NCBI GenBank assembly: GCA_964422745.1
Contig: CAYRCK010000004.1
Span: 4,497 to 68,496 of the forward strand
From: an uncultured bacterium
GTDB taxonomy: Bacteria; Krumholzibacteriota; Krumholzibacteriia; Krumholzibacteriales; Krumholzibacteriaceae
Length of the DNA: 64,000 nt
Direction: 5' to 3'
In this document: one piece after another, positions 46,808-63,468 of the stretch
Layout of the letters: each line of letters starts with the position of its first letter
How positions within the stretch are numbered: position 1 is the stretch's first letter
Notes under the pieces: model-generated
Seen by the model: only the letters and a program-made list of their open reading frames with translations
What the model was told of the DNA's origin: nothing
Database searches by the model: none
Translations under genes and position numbers: made by a program

Positions 46808-47217
46808 GGCAGCCCTCCATTTGCGTGCATCTTGATACGGCCGGACGCCGAGAGGATGATCTATCGGGAGATGATATCAACTTTATCACAGTTTTGACAG
46901 CGGATAAGAAGTGGAACATTTTTCCGCTGACAACTTTCATCTGTCCTCCCGGACTGAAAAGATATGCGGGCAAGCCGCGTATCGTGTGCTGTATCCGATC
47001 ACCGGGAACTCTGTAATATACTATCATCCATACACTTCGTGCTTCGGAATCCGGGCAGATGTGAGTCCGTGCCGCTCATGGCATGCCTTTTGATCGATGT
47101 ACGATCTACGTGCAGGCGGGAAGCGTATCCTGGATTCCGGATGTACGATTTGAAACGGCATGGCTCCGGCCGTGCTTGGCAGGATATGGATCAATCCGAT
47201 AGGAAAGGTGAAATCTC

Positions 47218-48270
47218 GTGTCCATGAATGTCGGCGTAACGGATTGCTCCGAATACGTAAGAGCCTTTAATGAAGCCGAAGAGTTGCTTGGATCCGGCAA
47301 CGACTGCGAAGCAGAACCTATTCTGCTCAACCTCATCGGGATCACCGGTATCGCCTCCATCGCCTGTTTCCGGTTGGGGGAGATCTACAACAGGGGGGCG
47401 AAACCTATTAAATCAATCGAATATCACACGAAAGCTTTCGAGCTCGATCCGCGTCTGGCCTGTCGGATAACATCCAAGGAACATGTCCACAACGGATATA
47501 TCTTCAAGAAGGTGGACCAGAAACATGTCTCGTGCTGCCCCCTTTGCGACGGCCCCGGCAGGGAGCACTGGGTGTTCAATATGATAACGAATAACGATTT
47601 CAACGAGGGTTTTCATCCAATCCGGATCTGGATGTACTGTGATTCGTGCCATCACATATTCGCAAATAACTATCCATCAGAACTCGGGCGTGTTTTGAAG
47701 GGATCCGAGAACGATCAATACGAGAAGCCGAACACGGCGCTCCTCCACATTGTAGGTGAGATAGTATCGTCTATATCACTCAGATCGTCCGGTAATAGGC
47801 TGCTAGAAGTAGGTGTGGGGGCGGGGGAGATGTCGGCGGTGGCTAAGGAGTTCGGGTTCGACGTTACCGGCGTCGAGATAAGGCCCGCCCATGCGAAGAT
47901 GGTTTCGGACATGCTGGGAATCGAAGTCGTTCAATCAGACTTCATGGAGATGGAGACTTGCAGCCGGTACGATGTCATCTGCATGGGCGACGTCATCGAA
48001 CATATGCCGGATCCCGCGATCGCCTTGAGAAAAGCACGCTCCATGCTGGATCCAGGGGGGATCTTATGGATATCGACACCAAATTTCGATAGCGCTTTTT
48101 CAGTGATAACCGGTGATCTGGATCCCATGAAGAGGGTGTGCGAACATCTTAATTATTTCTCGAAGGTATCGATTGAAGGACTGCTGCAACGTACAGGTTT
48201 CAAGGTAGTCGACTATCGAGTATCCGGTCATTACAACGGTTCGATGGAAGTGCTGGCCGAGACGAGTTGA
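47218..48270 (+). CDS. Class I SAM-dependent methyltransferase with N-terminal helical (TPR-like) segment and CxxC...CxxC zinc-ribbon
   Basis: SAM motif I LEVGVGAGEM, motif post-I DVTGVEI, motif II/III (DVICMGDVIEHMPDP, GGILWISTPN). Cys pairs CCPLCDG and CDSCHH upstream of the MT core. Confidence 0.7.
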   Translation: MSMNVGVTDCSEYVRAFNEAEELLGSGNDCEAEPILLNLIGITGIASIACFRLGEIYNRGAKPIKSIEYHTKAFELDPRLACRITSKEHVHNGYIFKKVDQKHVSCCPLCDGPGREHWVFNMITNNDFNEGFHPIRIWMYCDSCHHIFANNYPSELGRVLKGSENDQYEKPNTALLHIVGEIVSSISLRSSGNRLLEVGVGAGEMSAVAKEFGFDVTGVEIRPAHAKMVSDMLGIEVVQSDFMEMETCSRYDVICMGDVIEHMPDPAIALRKARSMLDPGGILWISTPNFDSAFSVITGDLDPMKRVCEHLNYFSKVSIEGLLQRTGFKVVDYRVSGHYNGSMEVLAETS

Positions 48271-48588
48271 TCCAGGCAAGGATAAATTCCACAGGGCTGA
48301 TAGGAAAGATTTTACCTGTTTCACATCTCGGTGGAAGGATTTCGACCCTCCCGCATATATCCACGTCCGTAATCACATCCCAGCTCCGAAGACTTAACGG
48401 TGCCTTAACTCGTTTAACCAAAGAAAGTTCAAGGAGGACCGGTTTTATTTGTGCCCGGTCCGGATAGATAACCGAATGCAGGGCATGCTTCTTGATCCTT
48501 TCAAGTTTCGTTCTTCAGGCCGTGGGAATTGATTCCGCTTCGAAAGGGGATTTTTGTGGCGAATGACCGTGAGGCTGGGATTATCGAT

Positions 48589-50433
48589 ATGCATGACATC
48601 CTGATCAGAAACAAGGGGACGATCAGCTGCTGCATGATAGCCCGCAATGAAGAGGAGTTTATAGCAAGTGCCATCGGGAGCGTGAAGGATCTTGCAGATG
48701 AGATAATCGTGGTGGACACAGGTTCGGATGATCGTACTGCTTCTGTAGCTAGGGCATGCGGGGCCAAGGTATACCATGCACTGTGGACGGATGATTTCAG
48801 CGCAGCGAGAAATGCTTCTCTTGCCGGAGCGACAAAGGAATGGATACTGATACTTGATGCAGACGAATCCATAGCGAGTGATGATCACGGCAGAATAAGA
48901 GAGTTGATAGCCAGGTATCCCGATTCCGCATTCCTGTTCGAGCAGAGGACATACTCGAACAATTCTTCGATTTTCGGCTGGAAGCGGATAGATGAAGAAA
49001 GCGATGTGAATCATGGCGCTCTCGGGTATTTTTCCAACCGGCAGGTTCGCCTCTTCAGAAACGATGGCGCGATCCGTTACCGCGGTCATGTTCACGAAAA
49101 TGTGGAGCACGATCTTCGGGATAACGGCATAAGTATGTCCAATGTCGATATAGTTGTTCATCATTATGGAAGACTGGAAGCATCGGATAGGGTCAGCAGG
49201 AAATCCATGCTGTATCTGTCGCTCGGCAAGGATAAACTCAGCCACGATCCGGAAAACACAAAGTACATCTATGAAATTGCCAGCCAGTTGCTGGAGATCG
49301 GACACGCGGAAGAGGCTGCAGAGCATATAGAGAAGGTGTTGCAAACCGGTCTCCGATCATGGGAGTTCAACAACCTGCTGGGGCTCGCATATATGAAGCT
49401 TGGAAGGAAGGATGATGCCGTCGTGTGCCTTCGCGCGGCCGTCGATATCGAGAGTAATAATCCCGATTTACACAACAATCTAGGAGTCGCGTTGATGGAA
49501 GACGGAAAAGCCGGCCGGGCGCTCGATTCCTACAGGGAGGGATTGCTGATCGACGGAGACAACGCGAACCTTCTCAGAAATGCGGCATCGGCGTGCTGTT
49601 CACTCGGGATGATATCCGAAGCCGACGACTATATCCGCCAATCCCTTGCGATCGATCCGTTCATGCCCCAATCTCATGCGATCCAGGCGGAAGTGCTGTT
49701 TCGTAAAGGTGATTTCGCCGGGGCGGATTCCGCTTTGAAGAAGATTAGATTTCTGCCCGGCACACTGCTCAAGGTGTATCTGAAATCACTTCATCTCTAC
49801 GTACAGATGGGTATGATCGAGGAATCGGAGATGGTTTTGGAGAACGCGATTCGTGATTACCCGGAAAATGAAGGGTTGCTTTACCTTTCAGGAAAGATAT
49901 TCGAGTTGAAGGGAGATGATGAAAAGGCGATGGCCGCCTTGCACGGCCTGATTGCCTCAGGATCTCCCAACAGCGATGTCTTGAATAGCCTCGGGTGCAT
50001 ATACGAGAGGAGAGGAGAGTTCGGGAAAGCCCTCGAGTACTTCAGTGAATCGCACAGGCTTTCCCCCTCGAATGTTCAGATCTCAGTGAACCTGGGTATA
50101 ATAAAGGGAAAGGCGGGGATGAATGATGAAGCCGAATCGCATCTGAGGCAAGTTATCGCCGAGCACGAGAGTTGCGGTGCTGCTTACAATGCCTTGGGGT
50201 GCATTCTGGCATCCACGGGGCGGTTCGGTGAGGCTATGGAGTTTCTCGTCAAGGCGGTAGAGCTTGAACCCGGTAAATCTGAGTACTACCTGAATGTCGG
50301 CCTGGCCTGCGAAAAGCTCAACCTGTTCTCGAAGGCGATTGAATTCTACGAATGCATGGTCCGGGTCGATCCCAAGATGGCGGCGGCGGCGAAAGAGAGA
50401 CTGGGAAGGCTTCTGGCACCTGCATCGAGTTGA
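48589..50433 (+). CDS. Family 2 glycosyltransferase fused to C-terminal TPR repeats
   Basis: GT2 motifs (ISCCMIARNEEE, VVDTGSDDRT, DADE). More than 8 TPR-like repeats in the C-terminal 400 aa. ORF opens at 48529; ATG 48589 preferred. Confidence 0.8.
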   Translation: MHDILIRNKGTISCCMIARNEEEFIASAIGSVKDLADEIIVVDTGSDDRTASVARACGAKVYHALWTDDFSAARNASLAGATKEWILILDADESIASDDHGRIRELIARYPDSAFLFEQRTYSNNSSIFGWKRIDEESDVNHGALGYFSNRQVRLFRNDGAIRYRGHVHENVEHDLRDNGISMSNVDIVVHHYGRLEASDRVSRKSMLYLSLGKDKLSHDPENTKYIYEIASQLLEIGHAEEAAEHIEKVLQTGLRSWEFNNLLGLAYMKLGRKDDAVVCLRAAVDIESNNPDLHNNLGVALMEDGKAGRALDSYREGLLIDGDNANLLRNAASACCSLGMISEADDYIRQSLAIDPFMPQSHAIQAEVLFRKGDFAGADSALKKIRFLPGTLLKVYLKSLHLYVQMGMIEESEMVLENAIRDYPENEGLLYLSGKIFELKGDDEKAMAALHGLIASGSPNSDVLNSLGCIYERRGEFGKALEYFSESHRLSPSNVQISVNLGIIKGKAGMNDEAESHLRQVIAEHESCGAAYNALGCILASTGRFGEAMEFLVKAVELEPGKSEYYLNVGLACEKLNLFSKAIEFYECMVRVDPKMAAAAKERLGRLLAPASS

Positions 50434-50514
50434 TATCATTCTCCAACACGGCTAAAGTTCCAATACATTTCGGACGAACATCTATGGATGAGACGGTTCA
50501 TGGAGGTTTGATAA

Positions 50515-52005
50515 ATGAGAGACAGAGCAGTTATCCTGGTTGTCGACGACTCCAACAGTATTAGATACCGGATGAATGAAATACTCACCAATAACGGCTA
50601 TGAGGTGATACTAAGGGAAAACGGCGAGGCGGGCGTGCTCGCGGCACTCGAATTTTCTCCGGACCTCATAATAATGGATATCAATATGCCCAAGATGAAC
50701 GGATATCAGGCTTGCAGGATGCTGAAGTCATATCCTCAGACAAAGATCATCCCAGTGGCCGTTTTCACGACCGAGAATGAAACCAGTGAGAAGGTGAAGC
50801 TCTTCGATATCGGCGTGGAAGATTTTATCATCAAGGATGCGGATGAAGAGGAAGTGATAGCCAGGGTCAGCGGCCTTCTCCGCTGGAAAAATAACAGGGA
50901 CAAGATAATCAGGGACAAGAACAAACTCGGAAGCCTTCTGGATAGCCTAAGTGATTCGGTTATCATCGCCGACAACTCCGGCAGGCTTGTCTACTTCAAT
51001 CGCTCGGCCGCGCAGAGGTTCGGGCTTATCCCCGAGCTGATAAAGGATAAATTAGTGCGGGAACTGCTGCCCGCGAACGATAGGGTCGTTGAAATGTTCT
51101 CGCGGATAGAGAATCGCCATGAATTGGATGATTACGAATTAACGATCGAGATCGATGGAGAAGAAAAGATATTCAACGCGGGCACGAGCAGGGTTTTCGT
51201 CGATACCAGCGAAGATGTCGGTAGTGCTGTTATCCTGAAGGATATAACCGCGGAGAGGGTGGCGGAAAAGCTAAAATCTGAATTCTATTCCATGATCGCT
51301 CACGAGCTCAGAACGCCGATAAGTGTTGTTCTGGGTTACTCACGGTTGATACTGGAGGGGAAAGCGGGTGAGGTGACCGAGCTTCAGAGGGATTTCCTGA
51401 AGGCGGTCGAGGAGCGGGGAAAGATCCTGATGAAGCTCGTGAATGATTTTCTCGAGGTATCGAGGCTCGAGAACAATTTTGTCAATTTGAAAATAGATGA
51501 GTTCGATATATCGGAGCTCGTCGTTAGCGTGGTGGACGGGTTGAAACTTCTCGCCGATAACAAAAACATAAAGCTCACTTTCGATGGCGGCGGCAAGCCT
51601 CTGAGCATAGACGGTGACAGGGACAAGATGGAGCATGTCTTAGTCAACCTGATCGAGAACGGGATCAAGTATACCGAGGAGGGAGGCAGGGTGGCGGTAT
51701 CGTGCATGCATGATGATGATGGGATTCGAGTGGAGGTCTCGGATACCGGAATAGGGATGGACGAGGATGAGCAAAAATTCATATTCGACAGATTCAAAAG
51801 ACTTTCAAAGGCGGAGAAGAAGAAGATCAAGGGAACGGGTCTGGGATTGGCGATAGTGAAGGATATCGTCGATGCCCACGGGGGCAGAATACACGTGGAA
51901 AGCAAAGAAGGCGAGGGAAGCACATTCCGTGTGTGGTTGCCCGGGAGATTGGAATCGCCGGAGGATCAGGCCATCGGCACCGGGAAGGAGAAAACCTTGG
52001 TTTGA
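50515..52005 (+). CDS. Hybrid sensor histidine kinase (REC-PAS-HisKA-HATPase_c), cytoplasmic
   Basis: N-terminal receiver with DD...D...K (VVDDSNS, IIMDINMPKMNG), PAS-like middle, H-box MIAHELRTPIS, N/G1/G2 boxes (GTGLGLAIVKDIV). Confidence 0.85.
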   Translation: MRDRAVILVVDDSNSIRYRMNEILTNNGYEVILRENGEAGVLAALEFSPDLIIMDINMPKMNGYQACRMLKSYPQTKIIPVAVFTTENETSEKVKLFDIGVEDFIIKDADEEEVIARVSGLLRWKNNRDKIIRDKNKLGSLLDSLSDSVIIADNSGRLVYFNRSAAQRFGLIPELIKDKLVRELLPANDRVVEMFSRIENRHELDDYELTIEIDGEEKIFNAGTSRVFVDTSEDVGSAVILKDITAERVAEKLKSEFYSMIAHELRTPISVVLGYSRLILEGKAGEVTELQRDFLKAVEERGKILMKLVNDFLEVSRLENNFVNLKIDEFDISELVVSVVDGLKLLADNKNIKLTFDGGGKPLSIDGDRDKMEHVLVNLIENGIKYTEEGGRVAVSCMHDDDGIRVEVSDTGIGMDEDEQKFIFDRFKRLSKAEKKKIKGTGLGLAIVKDIVDAHGGRIHVESKEGEGSTFRVWLPGRLESPEDQAIGTGKEKTLV

Positions 52006-52186
52006 GGTTTTTATATTAAAGAATTAGAGGTGAAGAAATTTTCCTCCCAGCACTGAAAATAATTCCTTTAAGGTTGATGCATACCCAGTCCTGCTAGCCG
52101 GTTCGGTACAGGAACCAATCCATTAAGTACCCAATAATCAATTGCTTAACCATCCTAGAATAGCTTCCCTGGGACTAATGTCCCAC

Positions 52187-52201
52187 GGGCACGTCTCTTG
52201 C
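52187..52201 (+). promoter_or_regulatory. Putative sigma-54 (RpoN) promoter upstream of flgF
   Basis: GGCAC-N5-TTGC (gGGCACgtctcTTGCc) with exact -24 GG / -12 GC spacing, about 33 nt upstream of the flgF ATG; preceded by a GGGAC-taat-GTCCC inverted repeat. Confidence 0.45.
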
Positions 52202-52233
52202 CGTCCGGAAACCCGTCAGAGGGAGGTATCGGC

Positions 52234-52947
52234 ATGATAAAGGGTATATCGATGGCCGCCAGGGCGATGAAGAACCAGGTGGTTCGCAACGATGTCATCG
52301 CCAATAACCTGGCGAATGTGAATACGGTGGCGTTCAAAAAGGATGTCCCCGCATTTCAACTGGAGGAATCCGGCGGCGGCATCGAAACTCGAGTGCTGGT
52401 TGCCGTCTCTCACGCCCAGGGTCCCCTTACGCGTACCGACCGTCCGCTCGATGTCGCCATAGAAGGTGATGGGTACTTCGTCGTCGAAACGGATGAGGGC
52501 GAGGCGTATACGAGGCGTGGTTCTTTTATCAGGGATGAGGATGGATACGTAATCACCTCCGAAGGGCACAGGGTCGTTTCCTCCGGCGGCGCCCTTCAGA
52601 TCGGGACTGGAGATATAAGCATCTCGAGAGAGGGAATCATTGAGGTTGATGGAGATGAGATCGGTAGATTGAGGATCGTACGTTTCGAGGATAAGACCGG
52701 GCTAATCAAAACGGGATCCTCGTTGTTCACGCCGGCGGGCGGAGAGGTTCCCGAGGATCTCACGGAGGAAGAGGTTTCGGTTCTTTCCGGGTTCATCGAA
52801 GAGAGCAACGTTGAAGTCGTGAGCGAAATGACGAAGATGATCAAGGCCCTCAAGGCCTACGAGATAGCCCAAAAAGCTCTGAAAGCCCAGGATGAGGTGC
52901 TCCAGCTTACCGTAGGGAAAGTGGGGAGCACTTCGGGCTCTTCGTAG
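52234..52947 (+). CDS. flgF: Flagellar basal-body rod protein FlgF
   Basis: RBS GAGGGAGG before ATG 52234. Flg_bb_rod N-terminal motif (ANNLANVNTVAFKKD) and Flg_bbr_C. Precedes flgG. Confidence 0.8.
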   Translation: MIKGISMAARAMKNQVVRNDVIANNLANVNTVAFKKDVPAFQLEESGGGIETRVLVAVSHAQGPLTRTDRPLDVAIEGDGYFVVETDEGEAYTRRGSFIRDEDGYVITSEGHRVVSSGGALQIGTGDISISREGIIEVDGDEIGRLRIVRFEDKTGLIKTGSSLFTPAGGEVPEDLTEEEVSVLSGFIEESNVEVVSEMTKMIKALKAYEIAQKALKAQDEVLQLTVGKVGSTSGSS

Positions 52948-53018
52948 ATGGAGCTCTTTGCATATGAAGAGCCGCAGGGAGAAGTTTGAATGGAAATATC
53001 AACTAGGAGTGGATTGTC

Positions 53019-53807
53019 ATGATTAGAGCTCTTTCGACGGCATCGTCGGGTATGCAGTGCCAGCAGATATTTATCGACAATATCTCGAACAACCTGGCCA
53101 ACGTGAATACGCCGGGCTTCAAGAAAACAAGGGTGGAGTTCCAAGACCTATTGTATGAATCAGTCAGGCCGGTAGGGGCGTCGCGTCTTACAGGAAGCGG
53201 CGAACCAAACTTCAACCAGGTCGGTCATGGAGTGAGGCTTTCCGCAACAACCAGGATTTTCAGCCAGGGATCATCTCAGTCCACGGATAATCCTCTCGAT
53301 ATGATGATCGACGGAGATGGGTTCTTCCAGATCCTTCTTCCGGACGGTACGTACGCATACAGCCGTGACGGCACTTTCAAGATCGATTCCGATGGGAATA
53401 TGGTGACATCTGCCGGGTTCAGGATGGAGCCGGCTATGACCCTTCCGAATGAGGCGGAGGAACTGCTCATCGCCGGGGACGGGTCTGTTTCCGTCTTGAT
53501 GCAGGCGCAGGACGAGCCAACCGAGCTCGGCCGGCTGGAACTTGTCAGGTTTCAGAATCCGAATGGACTCAAAAGCATAGGACATAACCTCTACAAACCG
53601 ACCGCGACCAGCGGGCCGCCGCTGATATCCAGTCCGGGGGAGGAGGGGATAGGTACGGTGCAGATGGGTTACCTTGAGATGAGTAACGTAAGCGTGATAG
53701 AGGAAATGATCGGGATGATCACGGCGCAGAGAGCGTACGAGATCAATTCCAAGGCGGTCAAGACCGCCGAGGAGATGCTCGATGTGGCGGCGAACCTCAA
53801 GAGGTAG
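53019..53807 (+). CDS. flgG: Flagellar basal-body rod protein FlgG (distal rod)
   Basis: MIRALSTASSGM...SNNLANVNTPGFKK rod motif. C-terminal YLEMSNVSVIEEMIGMITAQRAYEINSK. 262 aa. Confidence 0.9.
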   Translation: MIRALSTASSGMQCQQIFIDNISNNLANVNTPGFKKTRVEFQDLLYESVRPVGASRLTGSGEPNFNQVGHGVRLSATTRIFSQGSSQSTDNPLDMMIDGDGFFQILLPDGTYAYSRDGTFKIDSDGNMVTSAGFRMEPAMTLPNEAEELLIAGDGSVSVLMQAQDEPTELGRLELVRFQNPNGLKSIGHNLYKPTATSGPPLISSPGEEGIGTVQMGYLEMSNVSVIEEMIGMITAQRAYEINSKAVKTAEEMLDVAANLKR

Positions 53808-53813
53808 GTAACG

Positions 53814-54782
53814 GTGACGACAGGTATGGGCAAGAAGCTGCTGATAACGGTTCAACTGGGCCTTATTCTATCGGGATCCGGTTTCAATGCGGCGAGATGT
53901 GAAGGCGCCCTTACGCTTAATTCTCGTGTCGACATAGAAAAGGAGAAGATATTTCTGTCCGACATAGTAAGGGAGCCGTTGGGTGTGATGGCTGACCGGT
54001 TCATCGCAAACAGCCCTCGATGGGGCTCGGAGAAGGTGCTGACCGGCAATTTCGTTCGTGACCTCATCAACGGCTGTGATGTTTCACTGGGAGGGGCCTC
54101 ACGTATCGTTGTATCGCGGAAGATGCATGATAGAACCGCTGAAGTTCGCAGAGAGTTCGAGAGCGCTCTGAAGGCCGGATACAGGGAAACAGAATGGGGT
54201 ATGCGCGGTTATCCACTTGTGATAGATATTCGTAAGTTCCCGGATTCAATCAAACTGCCGCCCGGTGATTTTACCGTTAAGTGTGATTTTCCGAAAAATA
54301 TCTACAGATACCGGCCGGTTTCTTTCACCGTTCTGACCGATGTAGGCTATAAGAGGCGATATTCCGCCGGATGCAGGCTCAGAGTGAGAGCGGTGTGCGC
54401 CTTTACCACCCGTGACATGACAAAGGGTGAAACGGTTGGTATGGAGGATATCGTTTGGCGCCGTGTCGATATGTCCGATCTGTACGATAAGCCCGTCACC
54501 AAGGAAATTGATATCATCGGCCTGAGACTCAAGCGCTTCATGAGGAAAGGGATGGTCATAGAGCTGAAATCCGTGGAGAGGTCTCCTGAAGTAAGGAGGG
54601 GGGAAGAGGTCTTCGTTGAAATCATAAGGGGATGCCTGGTCGTGCAGGCAACCGGAAAATCGCTGGAGGACGGTTGGATCGGAGACCTGGTGCTCGTGCG
54701 CAATATGGCGAGCGGTAAAATCGAGAGGTACACGGTCATCGATAAGGGAAGGGTGTCGCCTTCATCGAGGGAGGGGAAATGA
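53814..54782 (+). CDS. flgA: Flagellar basal-body P-ring formation protein FlgA
   Basis: Signal peptide. C-terminal SAF/FlgA domain (GDLVLVRNMASGKIERYTVIDKGRV). Located between flgG and flgH. Confidence 0.7.
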   Translation: MTTGMGKKLLITVQLGLILSGSGFNAARCEGALTLNSRVDIEKEKIFLSDIVREPLGVMADRFIANSPRWGSEKVLTGNFVRDLINGCDVSLGGASRIVVSRKMHDRTAEVRREFESALKAGYRETEWGMRGYPLVIDIRKFPDSIKLPPGDFTVKCDFPKNIYRYRPVSFTVLTDVGYKRRYSAGCRLRVRAVCAFTTRDMTKGETVGMEDIVWRRVDMSDLYDKPVTKEIDIIGLRLKRFMRKGMVIELKSVERSPEVRRGEEVFVEIIRGCLVVQATGKSLEDGWIGDLVLVRNMASGKIERYTVIDKGRVSPSSREGK

Positions 54783-55354
54783 GAACCATCAAAGTTGCAC
54801 TAATTGTCATTGCTGTATTGTTCCCGGCGATTGTAACCGCACAGAGCCCACTCTGGGATGAAGGCTCGGGTTCTCTGTATTCAAACTTGAAGGCATATAG
54901 GGTGGGGGATGTAGTTACAGTCATCATACAGGAACAGTCGATAGCATCGAGTAAAGCCAAAACCGATACCAAGGTTAAAAACGAAGCTGGGGGAGGACCG
55001 GGTGTCGGAACTCTGGACTTTGTCTCCCTCTGGGGGCTTGACAGTGAGAACAATTACAAGGGGGATGCCAAGACGGAGAGGAGCGGACAGCTCCAGGCGA
55101 AGATATCGGTGCAGATAATAGAGATTCTCGACAACGGAGATTTCCGCGTAGAGGGGCAGCGTGAGGTCAATATCAACGGTGAGAGGGAAAGGATCAAGCT
55201 CAGTGGAATAATCCGTCCCCGTGATATCACACCGGACAATACGATTCTTTCTACTTATGTTGCGGACGCCATGATCATGTACGATGGAAAAGGGATCATA
55301 GATGCAGGACATGAACCCGGCATCATGACAAAGATATTGAACTGGATTCTCTAG
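54779..55354 (+). CDS. flgH: Flagellar L-ring protein FlgH
   Basis: FlgH family motif LYSNLKAYRVGDVVTVIIQE..., 191 aa, signal peptide. Confidence 0.85.
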   Translation: MRTIKVALIVIAVLFPAIVTAQSPLWDEGSGSLYSNLKAYRVGDVVTVIIQEQSIASSKAKTDTKVKNEAGGGPGVGTLDFVSLWGLDSENNYKGDAKTERSGQLQAKISVQIIEILDNGDFRVEGQREVNINGERERIKLSGIIRPRDITPDNTILSTYVADAMIMYDGKGIIDAGHEPGIMTKILNWIL

Positions 55355-55466
55355 TGCAGCGAAGGATTGCCGCCTGAACCGGCAATAGGATCCGCACAGG
55401 GTGGCTTGGATGCTCATTGCAAGAGCATAGAGGCAAATTCGTCATATACGGGAGGAGCTGGACACT

Positions 55467-56597
55467 GTGAAACATTCATTTGAAAGACGATCGATTCTTG
55501 CTGTCTGTGCGGCCATTTCTCTGATTGCATCTCTCGGTGCGGCGGCCCCGCTGCATTGTAAGGTGAGGATCAAGGACGTGACGAGCGTGGCCGGAATGGA
55601 CGGCAAACAGCTTATCGGTTATGGATTGATAGTTGGTCTGAACGGTACGGGAGATGGCAGCAAGAGTGTTTTCACAGTCAACTCCATTGTGAGTATGCTG
55701 GAGAAGTTGGGCATTACGGTATCTCCTTCGGAAATAAAGGTAAAGAATGTCGCCGCGGTGGTTGCTACTGCCGAGATTCCCCCATTTACGCCTCTGGGCA
55801 CCAGGGTCGACGTTACAGTCTCCTCATTGGGAGATGCGTCTAGTCTGGAGGGGGGGCAGCTGCTGCTTACACCTCTGCGTGGAGCGGACGGTATAACACA
55901 CGCTATAGCGCAGGGTGCGGTTTCTATCGGGGGCTTCAACATAAGCGCGGGTGCGGGGAATGTCGTGCGCAAAAATCATGCTACGGTGGGTCACATCCCG
56001 GAAGGCGCGTTGATAAAGGAAGGATTGGGAGGACAGCTGGCGAGCGGGAATAAATTCGTTCTCGTTCTGGACGATCCCGACTTTCAGTCGGCGACCAACA
56101 TAACAAACAGTATCAACAAGAGATACAGGATGAAACTCGCGTCTTCGATGAACTCCAGAATGATAGAGGTCAGGGTTCATCCGACGTTCGAGAAGAATCC
56201 GGTTTCCTTTATCGCCGAGGTCGGCGGGATGGAAGTTCTGCTGGACAAGGCCGCCAGGGTTGTGATCAACGAGAGAACCGGCACGGTGGTAGTTGGTGGA
56301 AATGTCTCGATAGACAAGGTGGCGATAGCCCATGGGAATATCAAGGTTGAGATAAGGGCGAGCTACGGGGTCAGCCAGCCATGGGCGTTTTCGGAAGGTC
56401 AATCGCTAGTTGTACCGGAAATCGAAACCAAGGTGGAAGACAAGGTGGCACGTCTTTTTGCGATAAGGGAATCGAATACGGTAAGCGATATAGCTTCGGC
56501 CCTCAATGAACTCGGGATCACACCCAGGGATATGATTGCGATCTTTCAGGCCCTTAAACGGGCGGGTGCGCTCAAAGCGGACCTGGTCATCATGTAG
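55467..56597 (+). CDS. flgI: Flagellar P-ring protein FlgI
   Basis: GTG start after GGGAGGAG. RIKDVTSVAGMDGKQLIGYGLIVGLNGTGD FlgI signature. 376 aa. Confidence 0.9.
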   Translation: MKHSFERRSILAVCAAISLIASLGAAAPLHCKVRIKDVTSVAGMDGKQLIGYGLIVGLNGTGDGSKSVFTVNSIVSMLEKLGITVSPSEIKVKNVAAVVATAEIPPFTPLGTRVDVTVSSLGDASSLEGGQLLLTPLRGADGITHAIAQGAVSIGGFNISAGAGNVVRKNHATVGHIPEGALIKEGLGGQLASGNKFVLVLDDPDFQSATNITNSINKRYRMKLASSMNSRMIEVRVHPTFEKNPVSFIAEVGGMEVLLDKAARVVINERTGTVVVGGNVSIDKVAIAHGNIKVEIRASYGVSQPWAFSEGQSLVVPEIETKVEDKVARLFAIRESNTVSDIASALNELGITPRDMIAIFQALKRAGALKADLVIM

Positions 56598-56605
56598 GTG
56601 ACGGT

Positions 56606-57088
56606 ATGGACACTCTAGAGGGAATAACACGGCTGAACGGCGCCGGGAAACAAAAATCCATCGGGGATGAGTCCGGTAAACTGGAAGAGGTATCTAGGGA
56701 TTTCGAAGGGATATTGATCGGTCAGTTCTTCCGTCTAATGAGCTCCACCATAGGGGAGGGTGGCATCATAGAGAAATCTTTCCAGAGAAGCATCTACGAG
56801 GATATGCTGCAGAATGAGTTCGCGAGGGTATTTTCACGCAGGGGTGGATTCAGGCTCCACGAGATCCTGGTTAAGAGGCTCGGTGCAAGATCGAATAATG
56901 ATCTCAGGCCGACGGAAGCATGTGATGTTAACGGTGAGGCCGCGGATGATGGCCTGAAGCTCAAGCGTCTAAACAGGAGATTCATGAAAATAGAAGATGT
57001 GTACCGTGAATCGGGCATTGCCGGTCCGGATGAAGGCGCCGCGAATTCACATCGGTTGGATGATCCCGAAAGGAAAAGAGGGGTGTAA
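56606..57088 (+). CDS. flgJ: Flagellar rod-binding protein (FlgJ N-terminal Rod_binding domain only; no muramidase domain)
   Basis: FEGILIGQFFRLM...YEDMLQNEFARVFSRRGGFRLHEILVKRL matches the rod-binding domain. 160 aa. Confidence 0.7.
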   Translation: MDTLEGITRLNGAGKQKSIGDESGKLEEVSRDFEGILIGQFFRLMSSTIGEGGIIEKSFQRSIYEDMLQNEFARVFSRRGGFRLHEILVKRLGARSNNDLRPTEACDVNGEAADDGLKLKRLNRRFMKIEDVYRESGIAGPDEGAANSHRLDDPERKRGV

Positions 57089-57090
57089 AG

Positions 57091-57639
57091 ATGTTGTCCC
57101 GAAAGAAGGAAGTATTCGATGCCGACGGGAGTGACGGTATGAAGGGCAAGATATCGTCGCTATGCAGGCTGATGCGTGAAGAGACGGGCCAGTGCAGGGA
57201 GCTTCTCAAGCTTGCCAAATCCGAACAGGACCTGTTGATGGGAAATGATATCGATGGGCTTTCCAGGAATACGGAGCTAATGAACGAGAATATAAGGACC
57301 CTAAAGAGCTGCCAGATAAGCAGGCGGAGGCTCATAAGGGAAATAGGTGGAGATCTGGGGATCGAACCTCAGGCCATTTCGATAGGCACTATAGGGAAGG
57401 AAGTCGATACGGATCTCCTCGAGGAGCTGGAAAAAACGAGTAAAGATCTTGTGGAAACAGGCGAAAAATTATACAGGGTGAACCATAATACTATCTATTT
57501 AATAGGTTTTTCGCTTGATTTGCTCGAGCAGCAAAGCCGGTTGTGGACTGAGATAGCAACCGAGGAAGAAGGTTACTGCGAAGAGGGGAAAAGGGTCAAG
57601 GGATCGGCCAGCCCGCTATTTATCGAAAAGAAAGCATAA
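57091..57639 (+). CDS. flgN: Flagellar export chaperone FlgN-like protein
   Basis: Helical Q/L/E-rich 182-aa protein immediately upstream of flgK-flgL (same order as B. subtilis yvyG/flgN-flgK-flgL). Confidence 0.5.
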   Translation: MLSRKKEVFDADGSDGMKGKISSLCRLMREETGQCRELLKLAKSEQDLLMGNDIDGLSRNTELMNENIRTLKSCQISRRRLIREIGGDLGIEPQAISIGTIGKEVDTDLLEELEKTSKDLVETGEKLYRVNHNTIYLIGFSLDLLEQQSRLWTEIATEEEGYCEEGKRVKGSASPLFIEKKA

Positions 57640-57662
57640 TCCATCCTGAAAGGATATGACGA

Positions 57663-59045
57663 ATGGTAACACTATTCGGTATGCTCGAACTTAACAGGCG
57701 CAGCCTTTTGAGTTCACAGTACGCCCTTCAGACGATAAATCACAATATTGCCAATGTCAACACCGCCGGCTATTCGCGCCAACAGGTAAACATGCACACC
57801 AGCTATCCCATTAAAACGTCTTTCGGCGTTCTGGGGACGGGTGTTTCAGCGGTAAGCGTGCAGAGGGCCACGGCGGAGTTCTATACGAGACAGATGAGGA
57901 ACGAGAACTCCACTTTGGGCGGATGGGATGCGACATGCTCTGTGCTGTCGGAGATCGAGATGATTGTCAACGAACCGAGCGACACGGGATTGGCAAGCGC
58001 GCTCGATGCCTTCTTCAGTGCTTGGAACGATCTGGCTTCTGATCCGGAAAGCAGTGCGTTGAGGGTGGGAGTCGTGGAGTCGGCCAAGACGCTGTGTGAA
58101 ACGATGCACGAGATGGATCATTCATTGCAGAAAACCGGCGATAACATAGAGAGCCAGATAAAATACAATGTGGATCAATTCAACAAACTCCTGACAATGA
58201 TATCGGAGCTGAATGGAAAGATCGTTGCCACCGAATCATCCGGTGTTTCCGCCAGCGACCTTCGCGATGAACGTGACCGATTGATTCTGGAAGCGTCTAG
58301 GATCGCCAGGATAGATGTGAAGGAGGACCGTTATGGAGCTGTAGACGTTTTTCTGGGCGGCACGAATGTGGTTCACCGTTCTGAGGCGAGATATCTCGAT
58401 ACAAGCCTGGAATCGCTGTCGGGCAACAACTGGGTGGAGGTCGTGGCTGAAAACAACGGTGAGACGATAAGGGTCGAGGATGGAGAGCTGGCGGGGCTGT
58501 TGGAGGTTCGAGCCGAAAACCTCGATCAGGTGAGAAATTCCCTGGACAATATAGCGAGCATCCTGATCGCGAAGGTCAACGAGATCCACAGCCGTGGAAT
58601 GACTTCCCAGGGAAGCGGCTTTGATTTCTTCGTAGGCGAGGGGGCGGGGGATATTTCTATATCGCTGCCTATAGAGCAAAACGCGGATCTGGTAGCCACG
58701 TCCTATGACGGCACTATCGGTGACAACACGCTCGCCAACGATATCTGCACTCTGTCGGAAACCATTATTTCGGAAGATGAGCCGCTGACGATAAACGGGC
58801 TGTACGAATCGCTTGTCGCAGAGGTCGGGATCTACAGCAGGAACGCCAGGAATATGATGAGCAACCAGACGCTGATTCTGGATAATATCGAATTGAGAAA
58901 AGAGAGTATCACCGGTGTCAATCTAGATGAGGAACTCATCCAGCTGACGAAGTTCGAGCAGTCTTACGAAGCGGCAGCCAGGGTTCTGAAGACAGTTGAG
59001 GAATTGACAGATACAATTCTCGATCTCGTACAGGGGATATACTAA
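57663..59045 (+). CDS. flgK: Flagellar hook-associated protein 1 FlgK
   Basis: N-terminal rod/hook motif (LQTINHNIANVNTAGYSRQQV) and FlgK C-terminal helical domain. 460 aa. Confidence 0.85.
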   Translation: MVTLFGMLELNRRSLLSSQYALQTINHNIANVNTAGYSRQQVNMHTSYPIKTSFGVLGTGVSAVSVQRATAEFYTRQMRNENSTLGGWDATCSVLSEIEMIVNEPSDTGLASALDAFFSAWNDLASDPESSALRVGVVESAKTLCETMHEMDHSLQKTGDNIESQIKYNVDQFNKLLTMISELNGKIVATESSGVSASDLRDERDRLILEASRIARIDVKEDRYGAVDVFLGGTNVVHRSEARYLDTSLESLSGNNWVEVVAENNGETIRVEDGELAGLLEVRAENLDQVRNSLDNIASILIAKVNEIHSRGMTSQGSGFDFFVGEGAGDISISLPIEQNADLVATSYDGTIGDNTLANDICTLSETIISEDEPLTINGLYESLVAEVGIYSRNARNMMSNQTLILDNIELRKESITGVNLDEELIQLTKFEQSYEAAARVLKTVEELTDTILDLVQGIY

Positions 59046-60616
59046 TGCGGATTTCCTTCAGAATGATAAGCCGGCAGCCTTTGAAGGCGATTTTTGAAAA
59101 TCTGGAGCGCCTGACGGACCTCCAGGCGAAGGCCAGTACGATGAAGAAGTACAGCAAACCGTCCGACGATCCTCAGGCGGTAATGAAAAGCATGGGATTC
59201 AATACCCTGCTCAAGCAGAACGAGATGTACAGGACAAACGTCGGGAACGCCAGCGTATATCTGAAGATGGTTGATTCCACTCTTATTTCGGTCAAGGAAC
59301 AGCTGGATTCGGCCAAGAGGATAGCGCTCGAGCAGCGTAACGATGTATCGTCTGCCGAGATGCGCCGGGCTGCATCCATCGAAGTTCAGGGAATTATTTC
59401 AGCGGTTCAGGATCTCATGAACACGAAATTCCACGGAAAGTACCTGTTCGCCGGGCATGAGACACAGACGGTGCCGTTCCAGGAAATGAGCGGGGCTATC
59501 AGATATATGGGTGACGATGGACTCATACAGTTTCGGGTCGGAGCGGCCAGGCTGATCGATGTCACCGTGCCCGGTTCCAGGTTCGAATCTCTGGGTGGGA
59601 GCCATAGCATCGATTCTTTCACGATGATAACGTCCTTGAGCTCGGCAACCCGGCTCGAGACGCTGAACGAAGGACTTGGTGTCAGTCCCGGAAGGATAAG
59701 GTTGGAGGTGGATTCGGGTGTTTTTGTGGATATCGATCTTTCTGGAGCCGAGACGATCGAAGATATGGTCGACATGATCAACAACGGGGCCAGAGGCGCC
59801 GTACCGCCCATAAATATAATAACCGGCATCAATCCGTCATCACGTAACAGTATAGTTATTCAGCACATGGGGAGCGGCGAGATTACGGTGTCGGAGCTCG
59901 ACGGAGGCACTACGGGGGAGGATCTGGGGATTATCGGCACTAGCGTCTCGGGGATTCTGAGGGGGGCGCCTCTGGATCCGATCATGACCCTGGATACGAG
60001 GATTACGGATGTCCAGCCGATCAACAGGACTATTCTACAGCAGATAAGAGTTGTTATGGGCGAAGATAGCCACGAGGTGGATTTTTTCAGCCCAGCCTAT
60101 CCGGTGACCGTCGGGGATATGCTTTCGAGGATCATGGATTCCGTTCCGGGGCTTGAAGCGGAGATCAATGCGAGCAATGACGGAATAGTGTTCACGGCCG
60201 ATACGTCATTCAGCATCGAGGAGGTGGGTGCCGGAACCACCGCCGCCGATCTGGGTATCCTCGGAGCATCAGAGCCGTATGGTCCGTTCTCGCTTTTCGC
60301 CGCCCTCGAGACGCTTGAACAGGCACTGATACAGAATGACGGCGATGCCATCGGTCGATCCCTGGCTGAAATGGAGGAGTTGATCAACCTGATGCTGGAA
60401 GTGGAGGCGGAAATCGGCGCCAGGGGTGAACAGGTCGATATTCTCGATATCCGTCTTCAGGATTCCGACACGAGGCTTCAGGAAAACCTATCCCTGGTCG
60501 AGGACATCGATATAACCGAAGTATTGACCGAACTCTCGGAGGCCCAGCTCGCATACGAGGCCGCCCTTCAAACTGCGTCCACGCTATATAACCTGAGCCT
60601 TCTGAAATACTACTGA
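59045..60616 (+). CDS. flgL: Flagellar hook-associated protein 3 FlgL (flagellin-like)
   Basis: Flagellin-N-like start (MRISFRMI...SDDPQAVMKSM), flagellin-C-like end; long (523 aa) with large central insertion. Confidence 0.8.
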   Translation: MRISFRMISRQPLKAIFENLERLTDLQAKASTMKKYSKPSDDPQAVMKSMGFNTLLKQNEMYRTNVGNASVYLKMVDSTLISVKEQLDSAKRIALEQRNDVSSAEMRRAASIEVQGIISAVQDLMNTKFHGKYLFAGHETQTVPFQEMSGAIRYMGDDGLIQFRVGAARLIDVTVPGSRFESLGGSHSIDSFTMITSLSSATRLETLNEGLGVSPGRIRLEVDSGVFVDIDLSGAETIEDMVDMINNGARGAVPPINIITGINPSSRNSIVIQHMGSGEITVSELDGGTTGEDLGIIGTSVSGILRGAPLDPIMTLDTRITDVQPINRTILQQIRVVMGEDSHEVDFFSPAYPVTVGDMLSRIMDSVPGLEAEINASNDGIVFTADTSFSIEEVGAGTTAADLGILGASEPYGPFSLFAALETLEQALIQNDGDAIGRSLAEMEELINLMLEVEAEIGARGEQVDILDIRLQDSDTRLQENLSLVEDIDITEVLTELSEAQLAYEAALQTASTLYNLSLLKYY

Positions 60617-60641
60617 TGACCGGATTACGGAGGTATTTGCA

Positions 60642-61112
60642 ATGAAAATAGGGTCGTCCCGCTTCGACGAGGTTGAGATTGATGACAAGGACGTAATGAA
60701 CTTCGAGAGAGGTATCATAGGATTTCCAAGCCTCAAGAGATTCGTGTTGATGGATTTCTCGGACTCGTCCCCATTTCACTGGTTGCAGTCGATTGATGAG
60801 CCGGAGGTCGGCTTCGTCGTCTCAGATCCCGGTGTTTTTATCGAGAATTATGTCGTGAACATAGATGATGATACGAAACAACTGCTTTGAGTGGATAAAG
60901 ACAGTGAGATGGTTGTGATGATCGTTGTAACCGTTAAGGATGGAGGCAGGGATGTCTCGGGCAACCTTATGGGCCCTATTATAGTGAATGCGGATAAGCG
61001 CTTGGGCTGCCAGGTAGTGATCAATACGCCGGATTACAACACGAGAACCCCAATGAAGAATGACGCCGGCATCGGGCGATCGAGCAAGGCAAACATCGGC
61101 GTCGCGGTTTAA
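60642..61112 (+). pseudogene. fliW: Flagellar assembly factor FliW interrupted by an in-frame TGA (60888-60890); two halves in the same frame
   Basis: Residues 1-82 (GFPSLKRFVLMDFSDSSPFHWLQSIDEPEVGFVVSDPGVFIENY) plus residues after the stop (VVMIVVTVKDGGRDVSGNLMGPIIVNADKRLGCQVV) align colinearly with FliW. TGA terminates many other genes here. Confidence 0.7.
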
Positions 61113-61120
61113 GGGGAAAG

Positions 61121-61366
61121 ATGCTGGTACTCACGAGAAAGATCAACGAGAAGATCGTTATCTCGGCCGATATAGTGGTTACCGTCCTCACTGTAGACGG
61201 GGATCAGGTCAGGCTCGGTATAGAAGCGCCGTCCGATATCAGTGTCCACAGGCAGGAAGTGTTCGATGAGATAATCAGGTCGAACCGGCAGGCCATTCAA
61301 AAGAGCAACAACAGGGCGGATATTCTCCAATCGATCCTGAGCGGCAGAAGCAAGGGAAACGGCTGA
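61121..61366 (+). CDS. csrA: Carbon storage regulator CsrA (flagellin translation repressor)
   Basis: [51 protein letters not shown] canonical CsrA. fliW-csrA-flagellin synteny. Confidence 0.9.
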
Positions 61367-61447: not shown

Positions 61448-61475
61448 TAAAGATCACATTCATTCCATCCGATAG
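61448..61475 (+). promoter_or_regulatory. Putative sigma-28 (FliA/SigD) promoter for flagellin
   Basis: TAAA (61448-51), 16 nt, tCCGATAg (61468-75) versus consensus TAAA-N15-GCCGATAA; about 140 nt upstream of the fliC ATG. Confidence 0.45.
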
Positions 61476-61555
61476 ATGTGGATGAAGATGGGGGAACCTT
61501 TCCGAATCCGGACCGGCGCACCGTTTGTAAGGTATTAGAAGTGTGCCGGTGCGGT

Positions 61556-61606
61556 AACAAGGAAGCCGGAAAGGTGAGAGTGAGGTCCTACGTCCAAGGA
61601 AGGAGG
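61556..61606 (+). promoter_or_regulatory. Putative CsrA-binding GGA motifs in the flagellin leader (one overlapping the Shine-Dalgarno)
   Basis: AACAAGGAAGC (61556-66) flanked by CCGG...CCGG able to present GGA in a loop. Second site CCAAGGAAGGAGG (61594-606) is the SD, 8 nt before ATG 61614. Confidence 0.4.
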
Positions 61607-61613
61607 TCGTTAA

Positions 61614-63002
61614 ATGGGCTTCAGAATCAACCACAATATCAGCAGTATCAACGCGCTGAGAAACCTGGCTCTGACCGAGTCCAGCGTCGCGAAATCTCTC
61701 GAGAGGTTGAGCTCGGGACTTCGCGTAAACAGGGGTGCCGATGATCCGGCGGGTCTCGTGATCTCCGAGAACATGAGATCTCAGATATCCGGAATCCAGC
61801 AGGCCATCGAGAACGCCGAGACCGCAACGGCGATGATACAGACCGCGGAGGGAGCGATGACAGAGATCCACACGCTCCTAAACAATATCCGCGAGCTGGC
61901 CATCCATGCCGCCAACACCGGTGCCAACGATTCCGTGATGCTGGCAGCGGATCAGGACGAGATCACGAACGCGATCGCGACCATCGACAGGATAGCCAGC
62001 CAGACACAGTTCGGCGTTAAGAAGCTGCTCGACGGTTCGAGCGGTGTGACCGGAACGTCCAACGACAGCGATGTGACGTTCCTGTCCGCATCGGAGAATA
62101 CGATTGCCGGTTCCTACGCTGTAGATATCACTACCCAGGCGGAGCAGGCTATATCGACGGCAGGTACCAACCAGACGGCCGCTCTCGGTGCCGCCGAGAC
62201 CCTGACGATTCAGGGGGTTGCGATCAACCTGACGGCCGGTATGACTCAGGCCCAGGTCGTAACCACGATCAACAACTACAACGCGTCGACAGGTGTTACG
62301 GCGTCCGTCGTCGGTGGCGCGCTGACTCTTACGACCGATATGTACGGCAGCAATGTCGACATATCCGTCGTATCGAACGTCGCGGCCGCCACGACCAGCA
62401 CAGGTGTCGGTACGACTCCGATCACGGACAGCGGAGTCGATATCGCCGGTACTCTCGGCGGGCTGGCCGCCACGGGTAACGGAAAGGTCCTGACCGGTGA
62501 CGATGGATTGGCCGTCGAGGGTCTCTCGATCGAGTCGATCGCTACTGGTGCCCAGGGAGCGATTACGATTGTCAACAATTCGCTCGTGTTCCAGGTTGGG
62601 CCCAATGCCAACCAGACGGTCGAGATCGCGCTCAACGCCATGAGCTCGACGACCCTAGGCGCCGGCGTCTCAGGCAATCTGTTCAATAACTTGAGCGAGA
62701 TCGACGTCACGACTGCCGAAAACGCCCAGGATTCGATCCTGCTGATCGACGACGCAATTCAGGATGTCTCGGCCAAGCGAGGCGAGCTCGGTGCGTTCCA
62801 GAAGAACACTCTGGAGAGCAATACGAGAAACCTCGCCATCGCCGAGGAGAACCTCGTAGCGGCGGAATCGGTGATACGTGATACCGATTTCGCAAAGGAA
62901 ATGGCCCAGATGACAAAGAGCCAGATCCTGCTACAGTCCGGCACCGCCATGTTGGTGCAGGCGAACCAGATTCCTCAGGTTGTGCTGCAGCTGCTGCAGT
63001 AA
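61614..63002 (+). CDS. fliC: Flagellin
   Basis: MGFRINHNISSINALRNL...GLRVNRGADDPAGLVISE N-terminal D0/D1. C-terminal VIRDTDFAKEMAQMTKSQILLQSGTAMLVQANQIPQ. S/T/G/A-rich central variable domain. 462 aa. Confidence 0.95.
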   Translation: MGFRINHNISSINALRNLALTESSVAKSLERLSSGLRVNRGADDPAGLVISENMRSQISGIQQAIENAETATAMIQTAEGAMTEIHTLLNNIRELAIHAANTGANDSVMLAADQDEITNAIATIDRIASQTQFGVKKLLDGSSGVTGTSNDSDVTFLSASENTIAGSYAVDITTQAEQAISTAGTNQTAALGAAETLTIQGVAINLTAGMTQAQVVTTINNYNASTGVTASVVGGALTLTTDMYGSNVDISVVSNVAAATTSTGVGTTPITDSGVDIAGTLGGLAATGNGKVLTGDDGLAVEGLSIESIATGAQGAITIVNNSLVFQVGPNANQTVEIALNAMSSTTLGAGVSGNLFNNLSEIDVTTAENAQDSILLIDDAIQDVSAKRGELGAFQKNTLESNTRNLAIAEENLVAAESVIRDTDFAKEMAQMTKSQILLQSGTAMLVQANQIPQVVLQLLQ

Positions 63003-63051: not shown

Positions 63052-63075
63052 TGATGAGTGCACGGGAGAACCGCC

Positions 63076-63468
63076 ATGAGGATCGGCAACATAGAAAGCC
63101 AGCTCCAAGAGCTCCGGGCTGATAATCGATCCCCCGCTGAATCAATGGTATCAGGGAAAGGTGATGGGGCGGGAAGGGCCGGGGGACCGAATGAGGCCGG
63201 GCGCTCGGAGGACATTCATCCAATGCGACCGGATCGGGGAAATTCGCAGCATATCATCATGGATTCGAGAGACTGTAATTTGGATCCGGATAAGTACCGA
63301 AGGAATCTCGATTACACTAAACACAGTGGCACGGGCAAGTATTTCGTGAGGGTTATTGATTCCTCGAGCGGTGAGGTGATACGGGAAGTGCCCCCTGAAG
63401 GCCAACTGGATCGAATGGCAAGGATCAGAGATCTTATTCGGAAAGCCTATAGTGTGAGCGACTATTGA
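63076..63468 (+). CDS. flaG: Flagellar protein FlaG
   Basis: C-terminal KYFVRVIDSSSGEVIREVPPEGQLD matches the FlaG family motif; located between fliC and fliD. ORF opens at 63058; ATG 63076 preferred. Confidence 0.65.
   Translation: MRIGNIESQLQELRADNRSPAESMVSGKGDGAGRAGGPNEAGRSEDIHPMRPDRGNSQHIIMDSRDCNLDPDKYRRNLDYTKHSGTGKYFVRVIDSSSGEVIREVPPEGQLDRMARIRDLIRKAYSVSDY

Follow-up and report, generated by a model that had tools for sequence, protein, structure and literature searches.

The succession of sigma-54 for middle and sigma-28 for late flagellar genes is the textbook arrangement for Campylobacterota, Vibrio, Pseudomonas, and others. Vibrio cholerae and Pseudomonas aeruginosa run a four-tier hierarchy, in which FlrA or FleQ is followed by FlrBC or FleSR and then by FliA. 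In the Helicobacter/Campylobacter lineage, where the FliW-CsrA pair is also present, the activator FlgR reportedly has no DNA-binding domain and acts independently of an enhancer. RpoN in these bacteria drives rod, hook, and flagellin-glycosylation genes under the soluble kinase FlgS, the major flagellin depending on sigma-28 (PMC3930126); sigma-54 control of flagella has already been documented across many phyla (PMC3162934, PMC12316311). The literature on the Krumholzibacteriota mentions flagella and not flagellar regulation. Here, we describe a -24/-12 element ahead of flgF in a 64-kb stretch of contig CAYRCK010000004.1 (hereafter, the window) from an uncultured member of this phylum, and we consider it highly probable that this element (52188-52201) functions as an RpoN (sigma-54) promoter of the flgFGAHI-flgJ-like-flgN-flgKL-fliW-csrA operon.

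The sequence gGGCACgtctcTTGCc occupies positions 52187-52202, with the core GGCAC-N5-TTGC inside it. A first-pass annotation, made from the letters of the window alone, had proposed an RpoN-type match with correct spacing at this point, and the sequence bears out that description. The element is intergenic and on the coding strand, its GG and GC are separated by exactly 10 nucleotides (nt), and the C of the -12 GC lies 32-33 nt upstream of the flgF ATG at 52234, with a ribosome-binding site, AGGGAGG, at 52220-52226; the local sequence through the start of flgF reads cctGGGACtaatGTCCCacgGGCACgtctcTTGCcgtccggaaacccgtcagAGGGAGGtatcggcATG. Compared with the generic sigma-54 consensus TGGCAC-N5-TTGCW (PMC12316311), GGCACgtctcTTGC agrees at 9/9 core bases, and the base before GG is G rather than T. 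The start listed for flgF by the open reading frame program, TTG 52198, is an artifact and falls inside the -12 element. Transcription of the operon is predicted to start at ~52212-52214 (~52213 with C52201 as the -12 position), leaving a leader of ~21 nt. No sigma-70-like site was found in the kinase-flgF spacer, 52006-52233. A sigma-28 reading of the flgF block (TAAT...GCCG) was rejected, as its spacer of 20 nt is too long.

Generic sigma-54 promoters lie 20-60 nt ahead of the start codon and carry an upstream palindrome and an A/T-rich spacer; their bacterial consensus was reportedly compiled by Barrios et al. in 1999. The flgF promoter resembles them in the GG and GC (TG) elements, which here too are exactly one helical turn apart, and in its short distance to the start codon, its upstream palindrome, and its A/T-rich spacer. 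It differs in that the lineage favors GGCAT over GGCAC (17 of the 23 instances described below), in that one operon class carries TTGA or TTGT at -12, and in that the flgF class has G or A, not T, ahead of GG.

Seven loci from relatives (L017-L023), each ~16-21 kb, were compared with the window, giving eight loci in all. The FlgF proteins of these relatives are 53-60% identical to that of the window, and their gene order, (methyltransferase)-GT2/TPR-kinase-flgF...flagellin, is the same. The pattern GGCA[CT]-N5-TTGC has a single exact match in the window and exactly one in every relative locus (7/7), where it is always 25-30 nt before the flgF ribosome-binding site. Because a distal motif keeps a constant distance from the promoter, an ungapped alignment anchored on GG is valid for seven loci. 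In this alignment, mean pairwise identity was 0.87 for the -24/-12 block, 1.00 for the CG following TTGC, and 0.83 for the distal palindrome; it was 0.59 for an inverted repeat beside the promoter and 0.60 for a second, weaker upstream element. The 104-nt spacer (0.29) and the DNA further upstream (0.25) are essentially random by this measure. These values mark out a clear phylogenetic footprint at the flgF promoter, and the sigma-54-type reading offered by the first-pass annotation is strengthened accordingly in one respect: the element stands in the same place in seven diverged relatives whose adjoining intergenic DNA has been randomized.

The window is contained in a 146.9-kb metagenome contig, ENA ERZ27256778 k141_1006497. 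Metagenome-assembled genomes, several of them labeled Candidatus Krumholzibacteriota, supply the nearest FlgF and FliF proteins (identity, 53-73%), and the assignment to the phylum is based on these labels. Assemblies containing the organism and its relatives are ENA ERZ27256778 and NCBI GCA_964613215.1, GCA_041309605.1, GCA_019038625.1, GCA_021160845.1, and GCA_964584495.1. A FlgF scan with one genome per species returned only proteobacterial and planctomycete loci (30-38% identical) and no close relatives, and a metagenome scan with a FliF alignment gave four short contigs that were not usable for promoter comparison. At NCBI, one of the seven relatives, L022 (GCA_019038625.1, protein P0014), carries the label 'Bacteroidales bacterium'; its synteny with the Krumholzibacteriota loci is complete, and its FlgF is ~56% identical. 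The genome has probably been misassigned taxonomically. In L008, an unrelated proteobacterial genome, GGCAY-N5-TTGC occurs at 179-192, ~57 nt ahead of the flgF match, which illustrates how common the arrangement of this motif before flgF is.

The kinase-flgF spacer bears on whether flgF might instead be expressed mainly by read-through from the kinase gene, with transcription starting either at the 47080 promoter or at a sigma-70 promoter of internal position and the 52188 motif playing a minor part. All genes from 47218 to 61366 lie on one strand with short gaps, and no terminator-like hairpin was found after the kinase stop codon within 52006-52233, as read-through would have it. A non-functional site, however, would not keep 87% identity at a fixed distance from a second element in a spacer (228 nt in the window) that is otherwise randomized, and a spacer of about 200-670 nt between kinase and flgF is retained in 8/8 loci. 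We regard read-through as the main source of flgF transcripts as very unlikely.

Other flagellar operons of the contig and of the relatives, whose upstream regions the first-pass annotation had marked as worth scanning, proved to carry sites of identical spacing. The window was extended by 20 kb downstream on the same contig (L024, L025), giving 84 kb of stitched sequence; the contig up to that point includes flaG, fliD, fliS, flgM, and the genes from flgB to motA. Over these 84 kb, the relaxed pattern GGCAY-N5-TTG has 11 matches against a random expectation of 4.8. Six of them are intergenic, on the plus strand, and ahead of genes of the flagellar cluster; the other five are intragenic or antisense, a number equal to the chance expectation. 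None of the 11 falls in the 46 kb of housekeeping genes that open the window (MacB-type and Opp transporters, mreBC-pbp2-rodA, gap-pgk-tpi, cytochrome c maturation, and others). Ahead of the methyltransferase operon, TGGCAY-N5-TTG[A/T] is present in all seven loci that include the region, and the sites before the flgB and fliK operons are both conserved in L030 and L031. The site at 48482 has weaker support, as the relatives have no spacer there. Collecting 23 instances from six operon classes, four of them conserved, we found GGCA and TTG to be invariant and the spacing to be identical in 23/23, with the consensus (T/G)GGCA(T/C)RYCTYTTG(C/a/t). The geometry of these candidate sites is that of sigma-54 promoters. 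By sequence, then, the flgF promoter is part of a small putative regulon, which also takes in the methyltransferase/GT2-TPR/kinase, flgB-flgC-fliE-fliF...fliJ, and flbB-like-fliK-flgD-flgE-motA operons.

Two side observations concern these sites. The TTGA or TTGT at -12 of the methyltransferase/GT2-TPR/kinase promoters (47080-47093 in the window, and L017-L022) is non-canonical and conserved as a class. Between flgM and the flgB operon, a gene for a 691-residue protein (L025 4862-6937) with beta-propeller repeats and a C-terminal type IX secretion system (T9SS) sorting domain has a sigma-54-like site of its own, the TTG of which had been mistaken for the start codon; L030 and L031 lack this gene.

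The conserved block could also be the site of a factor other than sigma-54, either a conventional operator or the promoter of a lineage-specific sigma factor, its -24/-12 likeness being a coincidence. Conservation does extend beyond the canonical positions, with a spacer biased to (C/T)CT(C/T) and, at every flgF site, a CG after TTGC; the block is directly adjoined by the inverted repeat, a second conserved motif; and the rpoN evidence comes from another genome of the phylum. Against this, the positions that never vary coincide exactly with the sigma-54 consensus (GG, CA, TTG), the 10-nt GG-to-G spacing is rigid in 23/23 instances across four conserved operon classes with differing flanks, and the -24/-12 element is still there in L020 and at all other promoters, where the inverted repeat is absent. 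No other sigma family is known to have this geometry. A non-sigma-54 site is, on balance, unlikely.

The GGGAC-taat-GTCCC repeat, reported in the first-pass annotation as directly preceding the element, is indeed there, ending 3 nt before GG. A sequence of the form GGGACTnnnGTCC(C/T) adjoins the -24 element in 7/8 flgF promoters, L020 being the exception, and the repeat is found at no other promoter of the contig. An explanation in which the repeat and the sequence downstream form an RNA element (a 5'-leader hairpin or a processing site) rather than a DNA signal could draw on a C-to-T change in L021 and L022, the sole variant seen in the outer pair, which would preserve a G-U pair on the plus strand. 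However, there are no compensatory substitutions, no pair shows a two-sided change, and the covariation score equals the shuffled value; the folding energy is ordinary (z = -1.1), there is no Rfam match, and the repeat would lie upstream of the transcript if the sigma-54 start is right. RNA-element explanations were rejected on the grounds of Rfam, folding energy, and covariation, and we hold them to be most improbable. The repeat is probably an operator for a dimeric DNA-binding protein specific to flgF, the start of the rod/ring operon (putative target, GGGACTAATGTCCC). With its center near -35, the repeat would be in contact or in competition with bound holoenzyme.

Further upstream, AATTTYCC-N10-GAAAAWWTTTCC is present in 8/8 flgF upstream regions, and its core is the palindrome GAA-N5-TTC. 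At the flgF operon, this palindrome lies 133 nt from GG in seven of the eight loci and 135 nt in the eighth. It recurs at 166-176 nt before the methyltransferase operon promoter (6/7 loci) and at 36-37 nt before that of the flgB operon (3/3), and the fliK-operon promoter has the variant GGTAAWTWTTTCC ~132 nt upstream (3/3). GAA-N5-TTC is ~7-fold enriched in these upstream regions, at 4.0 against 0.57 per kb, and in its placement it looks like an enhancer. A fixed distance across randomized DNA is what would be predicted if an activator reached the sigma-54 holoenzyme by looping that depends on the face of the helix. Between palindrome and promoter, a TAA 62-64 nt upstream of GG (52124-52126 in the window) is invariant in seven loci. 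In the window only, AATCAAttgcTTA (52136-52148) fits the IHF consensus WATCAA-N4-TTR, and it is not conserved as such in the relatives; the A/T-rich stretch with this IHF-like match is possibly a bending site.

A mechanism can be postulated from these elements. The sigma-54 holoenzyme would sit in a closed complex at -24/-12, and an AAA+ enhancer-binding protein, made from a gene in another part of the genome, would bind the GAA-N5-TTC palindrome or palindromes, ~133-157 nt upstream of the -24 GG and roughly 160-180 nt ahead of the predicted start. Looping over the A/T-rich, possibly bent spacer, this activator would reach the polymerase and drive formation of the open complex. The inverted repeat specific to flgF would most likely serve as the operator for an additional regulator that gates the flgF operon alone. 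Late genes (flagellin and fliD) would use sigma-28-like promoters restrained by FlgM, and flagellin translation would be further governed by the FliW-CsrA pair made from the end of the sigma-54 operon. The sequences themselves, the degree to which they are conserved, their constant spacing, and the genes present are observed; dependence on sigma-54, the enhancer identity of the palindrome, and the parts played by the kinase and the inverted repeat are inferred from them.

Directly upstream of the spacer lies the REC-PAS kinase, which had been described as cytoplasmic from the window alone. It contains no hydrophobic segment (maximum Kyte-Doolittle 19-residue mean, 1.18) and is therefore soluble, and this part of the earlier description holds, as does the placement of the gene next to flgF, which recurs in 8/8 loci. 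The kinase gene itself stands behind the sigma-54-like promoter at 47080. Searched against NCBIfam, the protein gave generic kinase matches only, all below cut-off (the best being PnpS, 268 bits against a cut-off of 400). In every relative, the GT2-TPR glycosyltransferase and the methyltransferase accompany the flagellar kinase. The GT2-TPR architecture is like that of the Listeria flagellin glycosyltransferase GmaR, and the two proteins are likely flagellin-modifying enzymes.

The two-tier resemblance to Campylobacter, Helicobacter, and Vibrio suggested in the first-pass annotation is computationally supported, the FlgS-FlgR RpoN scheme of Helicobacter pylori and Campylobacter jejuni being the closest analog. 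Shared with it are sigma-54-type promoters ahead of rod, ring, hook, hook-associated, and putative flagellin-modification genes, a soluble associated histidine kinase, and late genes with putative sigma-28 promoters and an FlgM-like gene. Unlike FlgS, the kinase here has a receiver domain at its N terminus, a PAS domain, and no NCBIfam equivalog above cut-off; the N-terminal REC domain sets its architecture apart. In contrast to FlgR, the conserved distal palindrome at a fixed distance implies an enhancer-dependent, DNA-binding activator. It is a further difference that fliF-fliJ are also apparently sigma-54-dependent here and that fliW-csrA close a sigma-54 operon. With the Vibrio and Pseudomonas hierarchies, this locus has in common sigma-54-type promoters for early and middle operons, sigma-28-like ones for late operons, and candidate activator sites upstream of promoters. 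It departs from them in a Bacillus- or spirochete-like gene order (flgB...fliJ, flbB-like-fliK-flgDE-flbD-motAB) with fliW-csrA and in having no flrA or flrBC in the cluster.

For the late tier, a sigma-28-like promoter had been claimed before the flagellin gene. Such a site is present in the window and is a moderate match, with 6/8 bases of the -10 element and a spacer one base over consensus. A comparable, equally spaced site is present in L020, and L030 has one ahead of its second flagellin; in the csrA-flagellin spacer of 5/7 relatives, it is unrecognizable. The flagellin site is thus seen in a minority of relatives only, and this half of the claim is therefore weaker. The site before fliD is more convincing by its sequence, and L030 has a perfect TAAA-N15-GCCGATAA before its own fliD. 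After fliS, an FlgM-like gene (L025 4318-4626) gives a weak Pfam match and an NCBIfam score of 32 against a cut-off of 40.75. A sigma-28 tier is plausible on these sites, with the flagellin site as its least secure element and that of the finding as a whole. As a separate observation, the minus strand carries a perfect sigma-28 consensus, TAAA-N16-GCCGATAA, at L025 15077-15104, ~13.5 kb past the window end on the same contig, which is kept in three genomes (also L030 ~15071-15098 and L031 ~15127-15154). At the flbB-like/fliK/flgD/flgE operon, this site separates the candidate enhancer from the sigma-54-like promoter, and from there it would fire backwards into fliJ/fliI; once FliA is active, it could yield antisense RNA or prevent formation of the enhancer loop.

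Several points weigh against a sigma-54 promoter at flgF. Shuffled versions of the window had a mean of 0.72 matches to the strict pattern, and 55/100 shuffles had at least one, so that the window match alone is not significant; it is by position, orientation, and conservation, and not by window count, that the candidate exceeds chance. The methyltransferase-operon promoters lack the canonical -12 C (TTGA or TTGT), and the flgB-operon palindrome is only ~37 nt from its -24 element, unusually close for an enhancer. The 84 kb of contig contained neither rpoN nor a gene for an enhancer-binding protein, and likewise no FlgR-like sigma-54-activator response regulator gene and no fliA. Pfam detected no Sigma54_activat or RpoN domain in any sizeable open reading frame of the window, in agreement with the earlier remark that it encodes no enhancer-binding protein. 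In favor of the sigma-54 reading, Krumholzibacteriota sp. bin 3.1, the sole flagellated genome in Table S2c of PMC10936416, scores 1 for both rpoN (K03092) and fliA (K02405). This rpoN entry is a KEGG orthology (KO) assignment made for another member of the phylum; the FlrA/FleQ and FlrC KOs of bin 3.1 are both 0, and the supplementary tables of that study tabulate no NtrC-family KOs.

In every relative, fliW and csrA close the flgF operon directly ahead of flagellin. The flagellin leader (61476-61613) has several GGA motifs, one of them overlapping the Shine-Dalgarno sequence, and this arrangement suggests a Bacillus-type FliW-CsrA-flagellin translational checkpoint. Both the gene position and the GGA overlap match the FliW-CsrA-Hag partner switch of Bacillus subtilis (PMC13443453). 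The difference is that fliW-csrA are here the last genes of a sigma-54-type operon, and the checkpoint would therefore be coupled to the middle tier.

More tentatively, we can ask whether the Krumholzibacteriota run an undescribed variant of the sigma-54/sigma-28 hierarchy, which we consider possible though doubtful as a combination of four features. A single activator may act through the GAA-N5-TTC enhancer, strictly 133 nt from some promoters and near-touching others (37 nt). The rod/ring operon alone may have an extra operator, GGGAC-N4-GTCCC, at its -24 element. The soluble REC-PAS kinase may itself be made from a sigma-54 promoter, together with flagellin-modifying enzymes. Finally, a perfectly conserved backward sigma-28 promoter may lie inside the enhancer-promoter loop of the hook operon; if so, FliA release would let this promoter shut off early and middle genes via antisense transcription or loop block.

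A sigma-54/sigma-28 scheme had been undescribed for the Krumholzibacteriota, a candidate phylum related to the Fibrobacteres-Chlorobi-Bacteroidetes (FCB) group with no cultured member; the scheme is familiar and the phylum is new to it. The footprint gives a regulon map with four promoters that are conserved, one candidate enhancer motif, an operator specific to a single promoter, and sigma-28 sites, which can guide genome annotation and the hunt for the activator. It supports the view of sigma-54 flagellar control as ancient and widespread and changes no concept. The features are collected in the table.

Table. Positions of regulatory elements and genes in the window and, where marked L025, in its 20-kb extension
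Feature	Position	Strand	Remark
Palindrome GGAACATTTTTCC (GGAA-N5-TTCC), candidate enhancer	46913-46925		166 nt upstream of 47080 promoter
Second sigma-54-like promoter GGCATgccttTTGA, before methyltransferase/GT2-TPR/kinase operon	47080-47093	+	-12 C not kept
Methyltransferase, class I	47218-48270		
Third sigma-54-like match GGCATgcttcTTGA, methyltransferase/GT2-TPR spacer	48482-48495	+	window only
GT2-TPR glycosyltransferase	48529-50433		
REC-PAS-HisKA-HATPase histidine kinase	50515-52005	+	gene before flgF in 8/8 loci
Second, weaker GAA-N5-TTTC / AATTTYCC element	52031-52045		21-23 nt (~two helical turns) upstream of site 2
Distal palindrome TGAAAATAATTCC (GAA-N5-TTC), candidate enhancer/upstream activating sequence, site 2	52054-52066		133 nt upstream of GG
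A/T-rich stretch between enhancer and promoter	52124-52148		possible bending site
Inverted repeat GGGACtaatGTCCC (GGGAC-taat-GTCCC)	52171-52184		abuts -24 element, about -42 to -29 from predicted start
Sigma-54-type -24/-12 element GGCACgtctcTTGC, flgF operon	52188-52201	+	sequence; sole exact window match; kept in 7/7 relatives
Operon served: flgF, flgG, flgA, flgH, flgI, FlgJ-like, flgN, flgK, flgL, fliW, csrA	52234-61366	+	Pfam, conserved order
FlgF	52234-52947		Pfam
FlgG	53019-53807		Pfam
FlgA	53814-54782		Pfam
FlgH	54779-55354		Pfam
FlgI	55467-56597		Pfam
Rod-binding FlgJ-like protein	56606-57088		Pfam
FlgN	57091-57639		Pfam
FlgK	57663-59045		Pfam
FlgL	59045-60616		Pfam
FliW	60642-61112		Pfam
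CsrA	61121-61366		Pfam
Sigma-28-like site TAAA-N16-TCCGATAG	61448-61475	+	139 nt before flagellin gene
Flagellin	61614-63002		Pfam
FlaG	63058-63468		Pfam
Sigma-28-like site TAAA-N16-GCCGATAG	63545-63572	+	~60 nt before fliD (start 63632)
Sigma-54-like site before 691-residue beta-propeller protein gene	L025 4852-4865	+	
Sigma-54-like site before 319-aa/134-aa/flgB/flgC/fliE/fliF...fliJ operon	L025 7182	+	
Sigma-54-like site before flbB-like/fliK/flgD/flgE/flbD/motA operon	L025 15167	+	

Two further observations were made in the window. The FlgJ-like protein has 160 residues, with a rod-binding domain and no muramidase domain; a separate peptidoglycan hydrolase must serve rod penetration. A tRNA gene downstream of secG (27600-27683) is the sole Rfam match in the window.

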